Shown here piece by piece: positions 3,208 through 36,989 of a DNA stretch of 64,000 bases (the stretch's first letter is position 1; each line of letters starts with the position of its first letter). The position numbers and the translations under genes were made by a program. The stretch comes from Escherichia phage vB_EcoM_ACG-C40, in sequence record NC_019399.1. One strand, given 5' to 3'. The notes below the pieces were generated by a model. It saw only the letters and a program-made list of their open reading frames with translations, did no database searches and had not been told where the DNA came from.

Positions 3208-3467
3208 AAAAGATTCCTTTTAATGTATCTTTTAGACCATTCTATCATATCATCATAATCTAAAAAGTATTCATCAAATTCAGCCATGCAAACAACACCT
3301 TGTGCTGTTTTTGATGTAATATAAATTATTCCAACATATCTAGAATCTTCTTCGGTATAATCAATGTTTGCTATGAATTCATCGTTAATGTCAAATGTCG
3401 AAAACTTCACAGTATGCATCCTTAATACAAGATACAGCCATATCTCGTAATGATTTAGGTGTGTCAT
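3204..3467 (-). CDS. hypothetical protein (46.1-like); start uncertain
   Basis: ORF between 47 and 46; overlaps the next ORF in another frame, alternative ATG at 3419. Confidence 0.45.
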   Translation of the reverse strand: MTHLNHYEIWLYLVLRMHTVKFSTFDINDEFIANIDYTEEDSRYVGIIYITSKTAQGVVCMAEFDEYFLDYDDMIEWSKRYIKRNLL

Positions 3468-3654
3468 TATCTAAAATGTTGAAGTTAAAAGATACAGCCC
3501 AGTCAGTGCAGACCGTGACCTTTTTAATACAATTATCTTCAACTTCTAGTGGTTCAAACCAATATTCAATAATTTCTTTATGCCCAATATCATCTTTTAC
3601 TTCGCATTCAAAATGCTGACTCATCATAACATTTTTAAATTCATCAAAAGTCAT
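3391..3654 (-). CDS. hypothetical protein (46.2-like)
   Basis: 87 aa ORF directly downstream of gene 47. Confidence 0.45.
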   Translation of the reverse strand: MTFDEFKNVMMSQHFECEVKDDIGHKEIIEYWFEPLEVEDNCIKKVTVCTDWAVSFNFNILDNDTPKSLRDMAVSCIKDAYCEVFDI

Positions 3655-4670
3655 TGTGTTGCCTCTACATATAACTGATTTGCATATTGAATAAGTGCTT
3701 CACGGTCAGAATCGGTGATGTCTGGAATTGCATTAATGTATTCTTCCATCAATGTCTGAAGCGATTGAACTTCAACTTCTTCACTGTCATCTGACTCGAC
3801 AGAGTTATCAATCTTTGACACAACTCGTAATGAATGCACAACTTTTTCTAGTTCAGATTCGAACTTCGTCAGATTTTTGTCTACTTCAGTTACTATAACA
3901 CGTACTGATAGATTTGTAAAATCTTTATAGTCAATTTTTCCTTTAAATGGATAATGAATTCTACGATGCCAGGTAGTATTGTTTGGAATAAATTCCATTC
4001 GTTCTGTTTCTGTATCAAACATCCAGAACCCACGAGGGTCATTCTCGTCACCTGCTGTTAGTGTCCATGGTGTCCCAATATATCTGACGTTAGCAGCCTC
4101 AGAAATAGTATGGAAGTGACCAGACCACACTTCTTTATAAGTCTTAAGGAAATCAGGTTCAAGACCATGAGATTTCATTCCTTTATAAAAATAAAATCCA
4201 TTCAGTTCCCAGTGACCAACACAAAAAGAAGCAGATGAAGTTTTGATATGCTCAAGAATTTCACCAGTATTTTCTTCGCACATCCAAGGAATCAAATCAA
4301 TCAAACATCCGTCAAAATCTACTGTAGTAGGCTTATCATATACTTTAACATTAGGATATTTAGCCAAAAGCTCAGTAGAGGCATTTGGATGCATTACATT
4401 TTTGTAGTGAAGATCGTGATTTCCTACAATAGTATGTAATGTGATTCCAGCACCATCAAGCATTTGAACTATTTCACGGGCAAACTCCATAGTTTTATGC
4501 GTGATTGCTTTTCGCACATCAAAAATATCACCGTATTGAATCCAGGTAGTAATTCCATTTTTCTTAGAATATTCTATTGCTTGTTTAATTCCATCAATTT
4601 GAATACCGCGAATCCACTCATCATCAGCTTTAACGCCTAAATGCCAATCACCTAAATTTAAAATTTTCAT
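3651..4670 (-). CDS. 47: recombination endonuclease subunit gp47 (SbcD/Mre11-like phosphoesterase)
   Basis: 339 aa; metallophosphatase motifs DWHLG, GDIFD, GNHD. Confidence 0.93.
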   Translation of the reverse strand: MKILNLGDWHLGVKADDEWIRGIQIDGIKQAIEYSKKNGITTWIQYGDIFDVRKAITHKTMEFAREIVQMLDGAGITLHTIVGNHDLHYKNVMHPNASTELLAKYPNVKVYDKPTTVDFDGCLIDLIPWMCEENTGEILEHIKTSSASFCVGHWELNGFYFYKGMKSHGLEPDFLKTYKEVWSGHFHTISEAANVRYIGTPWTLTAGDENDPRGFWMFDTETERMEFIPNNTTWHRRIHYPFKGKIDYKDFTNLSVRVIVTEVDKNLTKFESELEKVVHSLRVVSKIDNSVESDDSEEVEVQSLQTLMEEYINAIPDITDSDREALIQYANQLYVEATQ

Positions 4671-28118: not shown

Positions 28119-28580
28119 TCATTGAGTTTTAATTACTGCTTTAGAAGCCTTTCCTGGTAAACGACGACTGTTGATAATTGCCATCCTGCATTGAAGTGAC
28201 GGGTTTTTGAACTTCTCATTAGGCTTACAAACCGTAAATCCAAGCCAAAGATTTCCATCTGTGATTTCTAAACGTCCAGGACGATATTCAACCCCATCAA
28301 TAAAATCCTCGTCAATGTCAGGACGCGGAGGCATACTCAGGAATTCATTAACTTCTAAAACATGGTCTTTTATTTTATGGAATAATTCAAAAACATATGT
28401 CTCATCAATCTCCCGTTGAATTGCACGATCAAGAAGATGCTGAGAATATTTTAGATGAAACGATGAGACCCCTGCTGCTTTTGATGCCTCACGAATCTCA
28501 TTGTTAATTTGACGAAACTCCGACTCAAAGTGACGACGAAGCTTATTTCTACGGATAAAAACTTCTGTATTGATAGTCAT
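28119..28580 (-). CDS. regB: site-specific RNA endonuclease RegB
   Basis: 153 aa; matches T4 RegB length and sequence as recalled. Confidence 0.8.
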   Translation of the reverse strand: MTINTEVFIRRNKLRRHFESEFRQINNEIREASKAAGVSSFHLKYSQHLLDRAIQREIDETYVFELFHKIKDHVLEVNEFLSMPPRPDIDEDFIDGVEYRPGRLEITDGNLWLGFTVCKPNEKFKNPSLQCRMAIINSRRLPGKASKAVIKTQ

Positions 28581-28639
28581 GTTATTCTCCTCTTAACTGA
28601 TAGAAAAATTATACCACAGTCAAGAGGAAAAGTAAACAG

Positions 28640-28918
28640 TTATTCTTTAAATCTAATCAATTTATTCATAGACTTTGTAACTTCTGCACGAACCTCATGT
28701 AAGTTTTTAAGCTGTTCAAGACGTTGCTCATAGTAAGCAATTTCATCTTCTTCGAGGCAGTCCTGTGAATCTTCTTTAAGATAACGTGCATAGTCCTGGA
28801 AAGCTTTACGGACTACTTCCTGGAAGTCATCAAGACTTTGAATTTTCTTAGGAGCAACAGATACACGACGAGGGGCAGTATAATACTCATAACCAAACCC
28901 TGCGCTTAATTGAGCCAT
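28640..28918 (-). CDS. hypothetical protein
   Basis: ATG 28918 overlaps the upstream stop (TAATG); track start is GTG. Confidence 0.45.
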
Positions 28919-29184
28919 TAGTATTTTTCCTCTGGTTGGAACACTGCGCGACAAGCCCACATACTGGCTTCTTTGAGTTTCATTTTAGCAATAGTTAACT
29001 GATCGAGGCTTTCGGCGTAATTCTTCGCGAGTTCATCATCTTCACAGCTATCAAATGCTTCCCAGAATTCATCATATAAAGCATCAAAGATAAGCCCTAA
29101 ACGAACTTCAGCATCTTTGATAGCATTCACTTTACTGATTTTATCGTCAGTATGTGGTTTATAACCTTTAATGTCTTCAATCAT
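28918..29184 (-). CDS. hypothetical acidic protein
   Basis: 88 aa ORF. Confidence 0.45.
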
Positions 29185-29398
29185 ATTTTACTTCCTCACC
29201 TGTTCCCAAATCATATTCAACTAAACGAATAGGTTCATGAATGCCATATCCTTGAACAGAAATTTCTGTCGTAGGATAAATTCCATTAATATCACCCATG
29301 TTCCATGCTTCGTTAAATTGCTGTTCGCCTGAATTACTAAACCACTCGGCGAAAGCATTTAGCACATCTTCAGAACCTTCAATAATTATCTTTGCCAT
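29177..29398 (-). CDS. hypothetical acidic protein
   Basis: 73 aa ORF, TAATG-coupled to the GrcA-like gene. Confidence 0.45.
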   Translation of the reverse strand: MAKIIIEGSEDVLNAFAEWFSNSGEQQFNEAWNMGDINGIYPTTEISVQGYGIHEPIRLVEYDLGTGEEVKYD

Positions 29399-29760
29399 TA
29401 CAAACTCTCGGTGAAGGTACGAGCGATAACGTCGCGCTGCTGTTCCGGAGTCAGAGAGTTAAAGCGAACTGCATAACCGGATACACGGATGGTCAGCTGC
29501 GGATATTTTTCCGGATGCTTAACTGCATCTTCCAGAGTTTCACGACGCAGAACGTTAACGTTCAGGTGTTGACCACCTTCAATTTTAACTGTAGGCTGTT
29601 GCTCAATTTCAATTTCACGGGCATGCAAACCATAGAAAATTTCTGGGTCTACAAAAGAGTCCTCTTTAAAGGTTTTAGAGACAATAATTCGTGCTTGAAT
29701 ACCATCTTCAAAATAAATAGTACCTTTATGTGTGCCTTCAAGAATTTGATATGCTTTCAT
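29398..29760 (-). CDS. autonomous glycyl-radical cofactor (GrcA/YfiD-like; T4 Y06I-like)
   Basis: 120 aa; C-terminal half matches E. coli GrcA as recalled, including [13 protein letters not shown]. Confidence 0.85.
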
Positions 29761-29766
29761 ATAACC

Positions 29767-30096
29767 TCAATTAGAAAATAAATTTATCCAAGATTGTTCT
29801 TTAATTAAAAATGGCTCAGAATCATATGCCATTAAACTCTGTGTGATTAGTCCTTTAAAAGGCCCATCAATAAATTCCATGGTAAAATATGGAATTTTAT
29901 TCATTAGCCGTGCATTAGGAGCCGTGCACAAAACTCTGCATCCTTTGAATACGCCTTTTTGTAATTTGTATTGCTTGGGATAAAATTCGCTCAAAATGTT
30001 ATTATTTGCTAAAATTTCAAAATGATTCACCAATTTATTTTTAATAGTTTTTGGTGAAAAATAAAGATATTCGAAAAGCTGAGTGTCTGTCATCAT
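29767..30096 (-). CDS. hypothetical protein, 109 aa
   Basis: ATG 30096 overlaps the ATPase stop (ATGA); track ORF extends upstream. Confidence 0.5.
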   Translation of the reverse strand: MMTDTQLFEYLYFSPKTIKNKLVNHFEILANNNILSEFYPKQYKLQKGVFKGCRVLCTAPNARLMNKIPYFTMEFIDGPFKGLITQSLMAYDSEPFLIKEQSWINLFSN

Positions 30097-30683
30097 TGCA
30101 TTCCAATCACAAAAAATTGAGGACGAGTAATACCACCAATACAGCATTTACTATTGCAGCAATATTGCACAGTTTCAATATGGACACTATAAATCTTATC
30201 CATATCAGGAGATTTAACAGGCTCATCGATTATATACAAAATTCGAGAAAGCGATAAACCTCTGAACTTGCTACCTCTATTACCAACAAAACTACGGACA
30301 GAATCAGTAAATAAACGGAATCGAATATCATCGCTAGAATAACGAGAAAATTCTTTTTTAATGCGGCCCACAGAAATTTTAGCGTAAGCTGAAGTATTAG
30401 AAAGAACAATAACTGTTCCACCATCATACAACCAATTAGCGGCAAAATTAGTTACTGCAGTTGATTTACCGGATTGTCTGCCACCATCTAAACGAAGTGT
30501 ACAATATTCTTTAAATAAATACGACGAATCAGGTACATAAAATCCACTATTACAAATTTCTTCTACTCTAGCGTCAGAATGGTGTGTAAAAGCATTCATC
30601 AGGGATAGATAAGGACCAGTTAAAAATGTTCTCATTTTATTCTCTCTAAATTTGGGCCATTCCATGGCGCATGAATTGTCCAT
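30093..30683 (-). CDS. small P-loop NTPase (RecA/KaiC-like Walker A and B); start uncertain (M1 or M17)
   Basis: Walker A LDGGRQSGKST and Walker B ILYIIDEP. Confidence 0.55.
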   Translation of the reverse strand: MDNSCAMEWPKFRENKMRTFLTGPYLSLMNAFTHHSDARVEEICNSGFYVPDSSYLFKEYCTLRLDGGRQSGKSTAVTNFAANWLYDGGTVIVLSNTSAYAKISVGRIKKEFSRYSSDDIRFRLFTDSVRSFVGNRGSKFRGLSLSRILYIIDEPVKSPDMDKIYSVHIETVQYCCNSKCCIGGITRPQFFVIGMQ

Positions 30684-30776
30684 TTCTGTATTTACCCATT
30701 ACCGCACTTGGGCTCGACCTTATTACAGGTTGGCGGGAATCCCTCACAGAATCATGAGGTCCAGCTTGTTCCCATA

Positions 30777-31250
30777 TTATTTGAACGATTTAACGTACTG
30801 AATAGAACCTTTACTATTTACAAAGGCAATTTTACCATTTTTATTATACATGGTAGCAGTACGCTGATAGCCATAAGTTTGCTTACCAGATTGATAACCA
30901 ACTAATGCAAAATTATCTTCACCCATTTTATTCTGTTTAGCGCGAATGCGTTCATGACCATGTGCCATAAGAACCTTAGCATCACCAGTTACAATGGATC
31001 GACGAGTTTTTTCATCTTCAACTGTATTAACAAAGTCGTCAAATGAATCAAATTTAGCATGAGATTTATTATACAGTTTTCCATCTACTGCATAATTATA
31101 TCCCTGTACATCCATCTCAACTTCTGTACCATCATCCAATACAGCAGTAATTTTCTGTCCTTTTTTAAATTTCAAAAGATCAGTAAAAGATTCAGCAATA
31201 ATTTGAGAATTAATAGCTGCTTCAGTGATAAATTCTTGATATGTTTTCAT
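30777..31250 (-). CDS. internal protein (IPIII/IPII-like) with capsid-targeting leader
   Basis: 157 aa; N-terminus MKTYQEFITE matches the T4 internal-protein leader; own early promoter. Confidence 0.7.
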   Translation of the reverse strand: MKTYQEFITEAAINSQIIAESFTDLLKFKKGQKITAVLDDGTEVEMDVQGYNYAVDGKLYNKSHAKFDSFDDFVNTVEDEKTRRSIVTGDAKVLMAHGHERIRAKQNKMGEDNFALVGYQSGKQTYGYQRTATMYNKNGKIAFVNSKGSIQYVKSFK

Positions 31251-31338: not shown

Positions 31339-32307
<969 letters not shown>

Positions 32308-35362: not shown

Positions 35363-35662
35363 AGCCTTGCGGCAACCTTGTCGGGGTTCCACCTGCTAAG
35401 GCAAGTGTTTGTACGAAACGCCGGGATTCGAACCCGGTTATTAAGCAGTTGACGCTACTCAATATTTTTTAAAAGGCCATATCTCGACCATATCCGAACG
35501 TTCCGTCAAAAACGCTACTCGGCTTACGGCAAAGATATTTCCTCGAATCGATAATTCGGTGCGCCGTTTCTGCTGTGATGTAAGGGGACATTAACAAAAC
35601 ATAAAGATTTATTAATGCCAGTCCTTAAACAGGGAACATCAGTCCGACGACTTACCGGTAGC
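35363..35662 (-). ncRNA. candidate stable small RNA(s), possibly T4 species 1/2 (rnaC/rnaD) equivalents
   Basis: about 300 nt non-coding; tRNA-like T-arm CCGGGTTCGAATCCCGG on the minus strand; GAGTAGCGT repeated twice. Confidence 0.35.
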
Positions 35663-35673
35663 GACCCGGTTTC

Positions 35674-36024
35674 TTAATATTCTTTTAAAGCATCAATCTG
35701 TTCACGGCGTTTACGCCATAAATCAATTGCTTCATACGCAGATTCAGCATTTCGAATTAGCCGGCATTTATGTAAAGACTTATGATTTTGATATTGTGTA
35801 GATAATGGAATTGTATCTAAAAGGTCTTTACGATCAAAGTATTCGTAACCATCTAAACCAAATGAACGATTTTTGAGAAATTGCCAATGGCCAAATTCAT
35901 TTTCAACATAAACATAATCTGCATGCTGATAAAGTAAATTAATTACACGTTCAGAAATAGCAGTATCATTATGATTAAAATAGAATGTTAAATCATGAAC
36001 TACTAAATAAACATTACCTTTCAT
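35674..36024 (-). CDS. hypothetical protein co-transcribed with the tRNAs
   Basis: 116 aa; ATG 18 nt downstream of the tRNA-Arg 3' end with GAGGAAAA SD. Confidence 0.5.
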   Translation of the reverse strand: MKGNVYLVVHDLTFYFNHNDTAISERVINLLYQHADYVYVENEFGHWQFLKNRSFGLDGYEYFDRKDLLDTIPLSTQYQNHKSLHKCRLIRNAESAYEAIDLWRKRREQIDALKEY

Positions 36025-36042
36025 ATTTTCCTCACTTATAAT

Positions 36043-36118
36043 TGGTCGAGGCAGTAGGGATCGAACCTACGACCCAGGACTTAGAAGGTCCTTGCTCTTC
36101 CTTCTGAGCTATGCCCCG
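36043..36118 (-). tRNA. tRNA-Arg (anticodon UCU)
   Basis: hand-folded cloverleaf; 7-bp acceptor, GCTC/GAGC D-stem, loop CTTCTAA, T-loop TTCGATC, CCA encoded. Confidence 0.8.
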
Positions 36119-36122
36119 TAAT

Positions 36123-36198
36123 TGGGGTGACCGATGGGAGTCGAACCCATGACTACGAGAATCACAATCTCGAGTTCTACCAACTGAACTACGGCCAC
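36123..36198 (-). tRNA. tRNA-His (anticodon GUG)
   Basis: cloverleaf with loop TTGTGAT, discriminator C, CCA encoded; no encoded G-1. Confidence 0.65.
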
Positions 36199-36312
36199 AT
36201 TAATACCTACTCCAACAATCATGATGTCTTCACACGAAATTAAGAGAAGAGTGATCAGTTCAACCCCTATAATCGCGTCAAGTAGATATTAATGTGACAG
36301 TTGTCACAAATT

Positions 36313-36387
36313 TGGCGGACGTGATAGGATTCGAACCTATAACCAATCGCTTAACAGGCGATCGCTCTGCCATTGAGCTACACATCC
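36313..36387 (-). tRNA. tRNA-Asn (anticodon GUU)
   Basis: perfect anticodon stem ATCGC/GCGAT, loop CTGTTAA, T-loop TTCGAAT, CCA encoded. Confidence 0.7.
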
Positions 36388-36391
36388 AAAT

Positions 36392-36478
36392 TGGTGGGGA
36401 GTGATGGAGTCGAACCACCCGAGTCGCAATGACAATGAATTTACAGTCCACACCGCTACCTCTACGGGATAACTCCCC
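36392..36478 (-). tRNA. tRNA-Tyr (anticodon GUA), class II
   Basis: 87 nt; acceptor GGGGAGT/ACTCCCC; loop CTGTAAA; long variable arm; T-loop TTCGACT. Confidence 0.65.
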
Positions 36479-36490
36479 TAATTCATAATT

Positions 36491-36565
36491 TGGTGGCCCT
36501 GGGTGGAATTGAACCACCATCTGGCGATTATGAGTCGCTTGCTTGAACCTTCCAGCTACAGGGCC
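36491..36565 (-). tRNA. tRNA with CAU anticodon (Ile2 by T4 position, or Met)
   Basis: acceptor GGCCCTG/CAGGGCC; loop CTCATAA; CCA encoded. Confidence 0.7.
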
Positions 36566-36566
36566 T

Positions 36567-36642
36567 TGGTGCTGATTGACGGAATCGAACCGCCGACCTT
36601 CTCATTACAAGTGAGTTGCTCTACCTACTGAGCTAAATCAGC
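36567..36642 (-). tRNA. tRNA-Thr (anticodon UGU)
   Basis: 76 nt cloverleaf; loop CTTGTAA; T-loop TTCGATT. Confidence 0.8.
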
Positions 36643-36647
36643 AAAAC

Positions 36648-36737
36648 TGGCGGAGGCGATAGGATTTGAACCTATGAGTCGCCGGAGCGACTGCCGGTTT
36701 TCAAGACCGGTGCATTAAACCACTCTGCCACACCTCC
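36648..36737 (-). tRNA. tRNA-Ser (anticodon UGA), class II
   Basis: 90 nt; loop CTTGAAA; long variable arm; 2 nt from the tRNA-Pro 3' end. Confidence 0.8.
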
Positions 36738-36739
36738 AG

Positions 36740-36813
36740 TCTCCATACAAGGATTTGAACCTTGGACCTCCTGATCCCAAATCAGGCGCTCTACCAAACT
36801 GAGCTACACGGAG
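36740..36813 (-). tRNA. tRNA-Pro (anticodon UGG); CCA not encoded
   Basis: loop TTTGGGA; T-loop TTCAAAT; 3' end followed by CT then tRNA-Ser, a dimeric precursor arrangement. Confidence 0.8.
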
Positions 36814-36823
36814 TAAATTGAAT

Positions 36824-36897
<74 letters not shown>

Positions 36898-36902
36898 AAA
36901 TT

Positions 36903-36989
36903 TGGTGCGAGAAGTGGGACTCGAACCCACAAGGAAATCATTCCGCAGCATTTTAAGTGCTGTGCCTTTACCAATTTGACCATTCTCGC
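36903..36989 (-). tRNA. tRNA-Leu (anticodon UAA), class II
   Basis: 87 nt; GCGAGAATGGTCAAATTGG...; loop CTTAAAA; long variable arm. Confidence 0.85.

Follow-up and report, generated by a model that had tools for sequence, protein, structure and literature searches.

The vs.8-vs.7 gene pair of Escherichia phage vB_EcoM_ACG-C40: a terminase-ATPase relative and its coupled partner behind a conserved structured RNA leader

What is the small P-loop ATPase that Escherichia phage vB_EcoM_ACG-C40 encodes together with a 109-amino-acid (aa) partner upstream of regB, and is the pair foreign to the T4 lineage? A first-pass annotation of a 64,000-nucleotide (nt) stretch of this genome (NC_019399.1; hereafter the window, whose positions are used throughout, the whole locus lying on the minus strand) had read the two genes as a module standing where T4 carries denV and ipII, with no recognisable T4 counterpart. 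The genes themselves are as it described them: an open reading frame (ORF) at 30093-30683 (196 aa) encodes a Walker A motif, GGRQSGKS, and a Walker B motif, (I)LYIIDE, and the ATG of the 109-aa ORF at 29767-30096 overlaps the stop codon of the ATPase gene (ATGA). When the locus is aligned to the T4 reference record (AF158101), the ATPase and its partner are seen to be orthologues of T4 vs.8 and vs.7 in their usual syntenic place. Protein identity to T4 is 88% for Vs.8 (over 180 aa), 99% for Vs.7, 98% for Vs.6, 91% for Vs.4, 97% for Vs.3 and 99% for RegB. Since T4 has vs.8 and vs.7 at the same position and at these levels of identity, the claim that they lack a T4 counterpart is wrong. The T4 Vs.8 protein (AAD42678; phrog_1488) has the same neighbours and the same ATGA overlap with vs.7 and differs in being annotated as 219 aa, with an extra N-terminus that is out of frame here and overlaps an RNA leader described below; T4 Vs.7 (AAD42677; phrog_2049; PF26834) is equal in length and position to its counterpart in the window and shows no notable difference.

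The order of genes bears this out. Read 5' to 3', the minus strand of the window carries e, ip, the RNA leader, vs.8, vs.7, vs.6, vs.5, vs.4/acb2, vs.3/tadIV-1 and regB, and T4 has e, ipIII, ipII, denV, vs.8, vs.7, vs.6, vs.5, vs.4, vs.3 and regB. The pair thus occupies its own normal T4 place between denV and regB, not that of denV and ipII. The earlier impression that gene content here departs from T4 is right for the block upstream, and fails for vs.8-vs.7-vs.6, which keep the T4 order: the sole true difference in layout is a single internal-protein gene of the DUF7412 or ‘ipIV’ type (30777-31250; Pfam DUF7412, 2.5e-95; phrog_3155, internal virion protein) in place of the ipIII-ipII-denV block. 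denV is indeed missing, a tblastn search of the window with T4 DenV giving no match at E<=1e-3. Natural T-even phages without v (denV) function, T2 for example, have long been known. The same replacement of denV, ipII and ipIII is common to many close relatives of the phage, CAM-21 and KMB39 among them, while other relatives retain denV, and vs.8 and vs.7 are found both in loci with denV and in loci without it. Megablast assigns the window to Tequatrovirus, the nearest records being CAM-21, KMB39 and G4507 (96-98% identical), and 482 records cover at least 80% of the query. The notion of a foreign module that displaced denV and ipII in this phage therefore has in its favour only the missing denV and an ip content unlike that of T4; it is refuted by the presence of both genes at this site in T4 itself, and the denV/ip polymorphism lies upstream of the RNA leader, independent of vs.8 and vs.7, so that we give it practically no weight. 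The first-pass annotation had also named T4 homologues of known housekeeping function as the finding that would overturn its reading. T4 does have homologues of both proteins at this position, and both are recorded there as ‘conserved hypothetical’.

The vs.8 orthologue (30093-30635, stop codon at 30093-30095) encodes a stand-alone P-loop protein of 180 aa, its residues being numbered here from the Met at 30635. The P-loop GGRQSGKS occupies residues 51-58 (30462-30485) and includes a P-loop Arg, and the Walker B motif LYIIDE, with a Glu following the Asp, occupies residues 133-138 (30222-30239). In an alignment of 23 homologues reaching down to 41% identity, DGGRQSGK, R114, R125-G126 and E138 are invariant, as are L133 and I135, with I136 and D137 nearly so; in all, 29 columns, which include all the catalytic motifs, are invariant among proteins 41-45% identical. 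The protein matches phrog_1488 (3.7e-77, residues 3-180) and, at 1.4e-7, a terminase large-subunit PHROG; the Pfam family Terminase_6N scores 0.0076 and 16.4 bits, below its gathering cut-off of 22. Among the sequences of solved structures Vs.8 had no significant match (best E 0.09), NCBIfam had nothing for either Vs.8 or Vs.7, and a search of PADLOC with the two proteins returned only a 13.6-bit AAA match. When a Vs.8 profile was compared with the large terminase subunit of T4, gp17, by hhalign, residues 51-153 aligned with gp17 160-271 (E 0.0017), in a register that places GGRQSGKS on the gp17 P-loop LSRQLGKT, matches the RG motif, and sets ILYIIDEP on MIYIDEC. The predicted structure agrees with this, being a single five-stranded alpha/beta domain with the fold of the terminase ATPase core, whose structural matches span about 130 residues of RecA1 only.

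What Vs.8 shares with the N-terminal ATPase subdomain of gp17 (PDB 2o0h; Terminase_6N) is therefore the RecA-like fold, the P-loop Arg in xRQxGK[ST], the hhhhDE form of Walker B and the RG motif in register. The two differ in size, gp17 having 610 aa to the 180 of Vs.8, which ends about 25-30 residues past the last aligned gp17 position (271), with nothing aligning beyond; its C-terminus comes just after the strand that follows Walker B, and it lacks a second ATPase subdomain, a coupling motif and a nuclease domain. They differ too in genomic setting, the vs.8 gene sitting in the early vs cluster beside regB rather than in the late packaging operon. Membership of the SF1/SF2 helicases was considered and rejected, as Vs.8 has a single RecA-like domain and no tandem pair. 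A hidden Markov model search of 1.8 billion cluster representatives found only 55 relatives of Vs.8, none longer than about 260 aa and most of 150-185 aa; in a tblastn search of 50,697 phage records, vs.8 was present in 1009, all of them T4-like phages of enterobacteria, and its syntenic position is conserved, T4 and 35 viral loci sharing one gene order. Given the homology to the terminase core, the short family members and the retained motifs, we conclude that Vs.8 is a lineage-restricted, stand-alone, nuclease-less relative of the N-terminal ATPase core of terminase in which the catalytic residues have been kept. In several GenBank records (JK1, JK42, slur14, ESCO47, AKM_NP4 and EO1), homologues of vs.8 or vs.7 are labelled ‘endoribonuclease’, ‘Endoribonuclease RegB’ or ‘large terminase subunit’; the name RegB has apparently been carried over from the adjacent gene.

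Purifying selection acts on both genes, the pairwise ratio of non-synonymous to synonymous divergence (dN/dS) against T4-group relatives being 0.13-0.16 for vs.8 and 0.00-0.03 for vs.7. A truncated terminase-like domain might suggest a decaying, functionless duplicate of the terminase gene; with this level of constraint, with 29 invariant columns that take in the catalytic motifs, and with the gene kept in about 1000 sequenced phages, such decay is very improbable. Against the same relatives, the synonymous divergence (dS) of vs.8 is about 0.5, some threefold above its neighbours (0.01-0.3 for vs.7, vs.6 and regB; 0.05-0.15 by a narrower figure), making the window allele the more diverged variant when set beside T4 vs.8, and this suggests a recombinational mosaic allele with a boundary inside the operon. 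Positive selection on vs.8 was rejected, since pairwise dN/dS is about 0.14 and the added divergence is matched in dS. Synonymous divergence is elevated in vs.4 and vs.5 as well.

The vs.7 orthologue (29767-30096; phrog_2049, 3e-54) encodes a basic protein of 109 aa (isoelectric point (pI) 8.9), comprising two N-terminal helices and a predicted SH3/KOW-like barrel, which is found only in T4-like phages, where vs.7 was present in 928 phage records. Its homologues carry PF26834; the window protein itself had no match in the local copy of Pfam, NCBIfam, PADLOC or the sequences of the Protein Data Bank, and hhalign shows no relation to gp17. Other genera have shorter forms of 78-88 aa consisting of the predicted barrel only. 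Across the 35 viral loci collected through Vs.8, a Vs.7-like ORF overlaps the vs.8 stop (as ATGA or TAATG) in about 30 of the 34 that can be judged, the remaining locus (L014) ending at the vs.8 stop and being left out of the count. This conservation of the neighbourhood was one of the checks that the first-pass annotation had proposed. Departures from the arrangement take several forms: a vs.5 homologue directly follows vs.8 in two loci (L020 and L037), another small ORF does so in L034, no ORF was detected at the vs.7 position in L017, and in L035 the Vs.7-like ORF starts 117 nt downstream of vs.8 with no overlap. In the loci collected through Vs.7, vs.8 lies immediately upstream in every case, and vs.7 apart from vs.8 was not seen there. 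These observations support a conserved, translationally coupled gene pair. Of the two-component accessory module proposed earlier, the coupled pair in an accessory operon is borne out; that the two proteins interact physically is suggested by the coupling of their genes.

What might such a pair do? Part of the answer has already been published, since the likeness of Vs.8 to terminase and its connection with the immune sensor Avs2 are both described in a preprint (bioRxiv 10.64898/2026.04.30.721860, May 2026), in which T4 vs.8 was picked from an AlphaFold 3 screen and modelled with ATP, its homology to the gp17 ATPase and its Walker motifs were noted, and its co-expression with EcAvs2 was found to be toxic; that result concerns T4 vs.8, to which the window protein is 88% identical. 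The same authors suggest that vs.8 may serve in anti-defence and that Avs2 came to recognise it, and they group it, as a possible third case, with the Avs2 activators Ksap1 and Ksap2. These too are small phage proteins confined to particular lineages, they have a terminase-ATPase-like fold, and they trigger Avs2 when co-expressed with it; their likeness to terminase is one of fold only, whereas vs.8 has sequence homology to terminase and conserved Walker motifs. The published EcAvs2 toxicity shows that engagement of a terminase sensor is possible.

Building on this, we propose that Vs.8 and Vs.7 would be made early and in a fixed ratio, from a single polycistronic transcript shared with the genes for the anti-CBASS protein Acb2 and the type IV Thoeris inhibitor TadIV-1. 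Vs.8 would bind ATP and present a surface resembling the terminase ATPase at a time when the real terminase has yet to be made, acting as a mimic of the terminase ATPase at the phage-host immunity interface and engaging terminase-sensing receptors, with Vs.7 as its bound partner or adaptor. An immunity-interface role is the most likely one because such a surface would appear ahead of the real terminase, and we put the probability that the pair consists of an ATP-bound mimic of the terminase ATPase and its small partner, acting at this interface, at about 0.5, a judgement drawn from genomic context and the one published co-expression result and standing at about even odds against an enzymatic role of a housekeeping type. 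The mimic might blunt the sensors, as an anti-defence factor, or might be an accessory ATPase that some sensors learned to detect. In its support are the catalytic residues, invariant in the 23 homologues, and the anti-defence neighbours: orthologues of T4 vs.4 (Acb2) and T4 vs.3 (TadIV-1) lie in the same operon, 0.9-1.5 kb downstream, as neighbours and not relatives of Vs.8 or Vs.7.

Several observations weigh against a role as a mimic. Of Vs.3 to Vs.8, each expressed against type IV Thoeris, only Vs.3 inhibits (PMC13243611), and vs.8 activates rather than inhibits EcAvs2 (bioRxiv 10.64898/2026.04.30.721860). Strict conservation of the Walker B Glu suits an enzyme better than a passive decoy, there is no sign of an arms race, the divergence of vs.8 being matched by the roughly threefold higher dS of a mosaic allele, and Vs.7 is not obligatory, as some genera have vs.8 and lack vs.7 (L020, L037 and L034). 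The pair might accordingly be thought of as an ATP-driven nucleic-acid enzyme or a regulator of phage metabolism, such as a modulator of gp17, packaging, recombination or early RNA handling, with Vs.8 as motor or switch and Vs.7 as the SH3/KOW-like binding subunit, its detection by Avs2 being incidental. We consider this possible and somewhat less likely than a mimic, for the one RecA-like domain of Vs.8 stands without a second domain or an obvious partner that could supply an arginine finger, and no nucleic-acid-binding motif was detected in the Pfam, PHROG and NCBIfam searches. The protein ends with the strand after Walker B, so that the coupling motif of terminase is missing; and the gene is limited to enterobacterial T4-like phages, where it sits in a variable accessory region. 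Whichever role applies, vs.8-vs.7 belongs to a small number of early gene pairs in T-even phages that are conserved and under strong constraint, its operon also encodes two proven sponges of immune signals, and engagement of an Avs sensor by vs.8 makes the pair worth a direct genetic test.

Checking the start codon of vs.8 brought to light, as a by-product, what is the most novel feature of the locus. The mechanical ORF begins at 30683, and its 16-codon upstream extension (30636-30683) has no protein conservation, overlaps the RNA leader and is probably untranslated. All 22 aligned Vs.8 homologues begin at a Met equivalent to 30635 (MK/RTFLT), the KMB39 protein is annotated as 180 aa, and the 39-codon extension annotated in T4 is in a different frame that contains a stop in the window. 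The start of vs.8 is thus most likely the ATG at 30635 (MRTFLT..., 180 aa), judging from these alignments, and not 30683. With the start at 30635, the gap listed between the ip gene and the P-loop ORF region is 141 nt. From the ip stop codon to vs.8 the DNA keeps 77-96% identity in loci where Vs.8 itself is about 40% identical. It holds a conserved pseudoknotted RNA of about 95 nt (30680-30773), marked by covariation and matched by a covariance model (CM) at 30682-30783 with 73.6 bits (E 2.9e-16), in a single copy in the window; searches of Rfam 15 with the window copy, seven T4-like loci and ten non-T4 loci gave no match at E<=1 or E<=5. The reference T4 Vs.8 (219 aa) extends 39 codons over this apparent non-coding RNA, which makes it an annotation issue.

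The fold was derived by hand from covarying alignment columns and then tested. Helix P0 pairs GGGAA (30769-30773) with UUCCC (30735-30739); it begins 0-3 nt past the upstream stop codon and reads AAAGG/CCUUU in other loci, the GGGAA/UUCCC form being that of the T4 group. P1, which crosses P0 and so forms a pseudoknot, pairs CUG (30762-30764) with CAG (30686-30688), and occurs as CCG/CGG, CGC/GCG, CCA/UGG, CAC/GUG, CUG/CAG and CUCG/CGAG. Hairpin Pa (30742-30759) has lost a C and its G partner together in four sequences. P2 joins CCA (30731-30733) to UGG (30696-30698), with variants CCC/GGG or CUGG/CCAG and a closing pair that may be A-U, U-A, C-G, G-C or U-G; it encloses P3, a hairpin (ACCU-GUAAUA-AGGU, 30717-30730) that is invariant across loci as ACCU-GURANA-AGGU, and P4, a mini-hairpin of 2 base pairs within 30699-30716 whose second pair covaries. 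A further hairpin, GCCA-UGGAA-UGGC (30656-30668), lies 20 nt before the vs.8 ATG and is present in nearly all loci as GCCA-NGGAA-UGGC; one locus (L013) has GGCA-UGGA-UGCC, with both sides changed.

Taken as a single sequence, the leader folds unremarkably (z = 0.4), and RNAalifold run on a raw MAFFT alignment recovered P3 only. The proposed pairs were therefore scored in three alignments against shuffled alignments and against controls in which the pairing was slid. In an unfitted MAFFT alignment (A5), 92.2% of cells were paired versus 78.3% after shuffling, 11 of the 19 pairs had changed on both sides, the covariation score was 0.40 versus 0.15, and slid controls reached 23-52%. In a CM-built alignment (A6), with P0 outside the model, the figures were 92.6% versus 77.2%, 13 of 20 pairs, 0.43 versus 0.16 and 26-52%. 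A metagenomic set that had not been used to derive the fold (A7) gave 94.1% versus 78.9%, 13 of 22 pairs, 0.18 versus 0.05 and 26-42%, and in it the closing pair of P2 was intact in all 42 sequences, in five pair types. In each of the three, none of 500 shuffles reached either the observed percentage of paired cells or the covariation score. Some of the sequences used in testing had also served to derive the fold, and phylogeny is not taken into account in the shuffles; most of this concern is answered by the slid controls together with the independent set. The G-U pairs identify the vs.8-sense strand as the folding strand. Taken together, these data indicate that the leader upstream of vs.8 is a conserved structured RNA and probably not coding sequence.

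That conclusion can be set against the T4 record, which annotates this DNA as the coding N-terminus of a longer, 219-aa Vs.8, and against the possibility that it is a mere terminator or promoter cassette of the PeSL type. PeSL cassettes (PMC4122927, PMC2839356), from the description of which the T4/PST early-promoter consensus is taken, are also intergenic elements at module boundaries, in some genera carry that consensus in their 3' half, and leave a partial duplication flanking an inserted gene. For the RNA element, GTTTAC-N17-TAnnAT, the PeSL early-promoter consensus, is indeed found in the 3' part in genera other than Tequatrovirus, and the element lies where modules meet, with duplicates flanking an inserted ip gene in L018 and L025. 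Against a coding role, the T4 and window frames differ, and the T4 frame contains stops; and neither explanation accounts for the compensatory base-pair changes, which include those of the pseudoknot and the paired loss of a C and a G, for the G-U pairs that fix the strand, or for the recurrence of the core in unrelated phage groups. Unlike dispersed PeSLs, the element is single-copy in the 64-kb window, where it has no promoter consensus, and it is much larger than a PeSL and more specific, with five helices that include a pseudoknot, single-copy per genome region, and a core shared with non-T4 phages. A coding or PeSL origin thus appears improbable, and a dispersed repeat was rejected for the window on the same two grounds, namely one copy in 64 kb and no promoter match. 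A tRNA or tmRNA was rejected too, ARAGORN finding none at the leader. The strand order of the structured RNA (P0-5', P1-5', a hairpin, P0-3', a branched stem, P1-3') is the nested double pseudoknot topology of hepatitis delta virus (HDV)-like ribozymes; with no C in the J4/2-equivalent of two lineages (UAAAUA in the T4 type, GUAUA in the rV5 type), no P1.1, a P0 of only 4-5 base pairs and no Rfam match, an HDV-like ribozyme was rejected and the similarity is one of resemblance only.

By blastn, the RNA element was found in 1020 phage records; nine ‘Campylobacter’ phage records among the matches may be core-only matches or mislabelled. Two loci have two tandem, diverged copies before vs.8 (L015, 3706-3938; L022, 3713-3944), one of the CUGG/CCAG type and one of the CCC/GGG type with the Pa arm deleted. 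In four others (L018, L019, L021 and L025, at about 3415-4000) an extra ip-like gene (MKTYKEFIT...) lies between the RNA element and vs.8, with the 3' hairpin GCCAAGGAnUGGC on both sides, an arrangement consistent with insertion of a cassette by recombination at the hairpin, as in PeSL-type shuffling.

Turning to the RNA beyond T4-like phages, we searched for its P2-P3-P4 core with blastn and with a degenerate pattern whose matches were then scored by the CM, and found it in the Vequintavirus phiWec189 (L149, about 2430-2560), in the 44.9-kb coliphage Ivi (L148, 2490-2540) and in about 20 contigs from gut, marine and soil sources (copies also in L085, L087, L109, L113, L125, L141 and L147); about 21 of the 64 pattern matches failed the CM and were probably due to chance. 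An exact-pattern scan of 185,579 bacterial and archaeal genomes found 0 copies of the core. In phiWec189 and in contigs of about 137 kb, called rV5-like here on size and similarity only, the full topology is present and all helix sequences are different: P0 is GGGG/CCCC, P1 CCAGC/GCUGG, Pa CACAU/AUGUG and P2 CCA/UGG. The core has the consensus N-ACCUGURANAAGGUC...CGGUAA-N', which forms a three-way junction. Same-strand tRNA genes lie within about 30-1500 nt in at least 15 of 28 of these loci, and in those non-T4 loci the core appears to be embedded in larger structured regions. Our tentative synthesis, which we rate a little short of an even chance, is that the leader is the T4-like form of a widespread, undescribed class of phage RNA acting in cis on long early transcripts, and that vs.8-vs.7 is a two-protein terminase mimic directed at terminase-sensing immunity. 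Under such a reading the RNA may serve in processive antitermination, processing, stabilisation or ligand sensing. The covariation is strong enough to merit probing of the leader, which may define a new family of phage RNAs linked to tRNA clusters.

The place of the leader in its transcript was addressed by scanning for the early-promoter consensus TTTACW-N16-18-TAYWAT. The window has 14 such sites where chance would give 1.08; they all lie on the minus strand, from 8879 to 39273, and provide a ready map of the early transcription units of the window. One, an exact match at 28608-28636, is the T4-type early promoter of regB (28119-28580), which therefore has its own consensus promoter, and it bounds the vs.8-vs.3 unit on the downstream side; between 28637 and 34833 there was no strict match. 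With no early promoter of the T4 type between the ip gene and regB, the vs genes form one transcription unit. The RNA leader is probably internal to a transcript that starts at a near-consensus promoter, read by eye, before the ip gene; lysozyme e (31339-31833) is the first gene of the region as read 5' to 3'.

The remainder of the operon begins with the vs.6 orthologue (29398-29760), for which the earlier identification of a GrcA/Y06I-like cofactor holds, on a Pfam Gly_radical match of 2.5e-18 and an RVSGY motif at residues 92-96. Against the GrcA equivalog TIGR04365 it scores 154.9 bits, below the cut-off of 170, its N-terminal 20-60 residues being divergent, and this glycyl-radical protein is best described as GrcA-like. 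The three small ORFs that follow are acidic as first reported, with pI values of 4.05, 4.54 and 5.49; the TAATG overlaps said to join them are present at vs.6/vs.5 and vs.4/vs.3 and absent at vs.5/vs.4, where the junction is an 8-nt ATGATTGA overlap. The first (29177-29398, 73 aa) is of the vs.5 type, in its common form (phrog_1986, 4.7e-43). The annotated T4 Vs.5 (58 aa; L001, 4382-4558) aligns with it over 18 residues only, and the T4 copy appears from this comparison to be truncated or rearranged. The second, vs.4 (28918-29184), belongs to the Acb2 family of anti-CBASS cyclic-nucleotide sponges (Pfam Acb2_Tad1_hairpin, 3.3e-18, 66.1 bits against a cut-off of 27). The third, vs.3 (28640-28918), is the orthologue of TadIV-1 in its 92-aa long form; T4 Vs.3 has been identified as TadIV-1, a sponge for N7-cADPR that inhibits type IV Thoeris, and the long form (>80 aa) of Vs.3 was found to be active (PMC13243611). 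The genes from vs.8 to vs.3 thus make up an early operon of accessory genes, at least two of which, Acb2 and TadIV-1, counter host defence.

Outside the operon, the window has a tRNA cluster on the minus strand at 35411-36989, with ten calls by ARAGORN (Arg, His, Asn, Tyr, Met, Thr, Ser, Pro, Gly and Leu); the eight tRNAs of T4 are a different set. One odd call of 96 nt, ‘tRNA-???’ at 35411-35506, may be one of the T4 stable RNAs.

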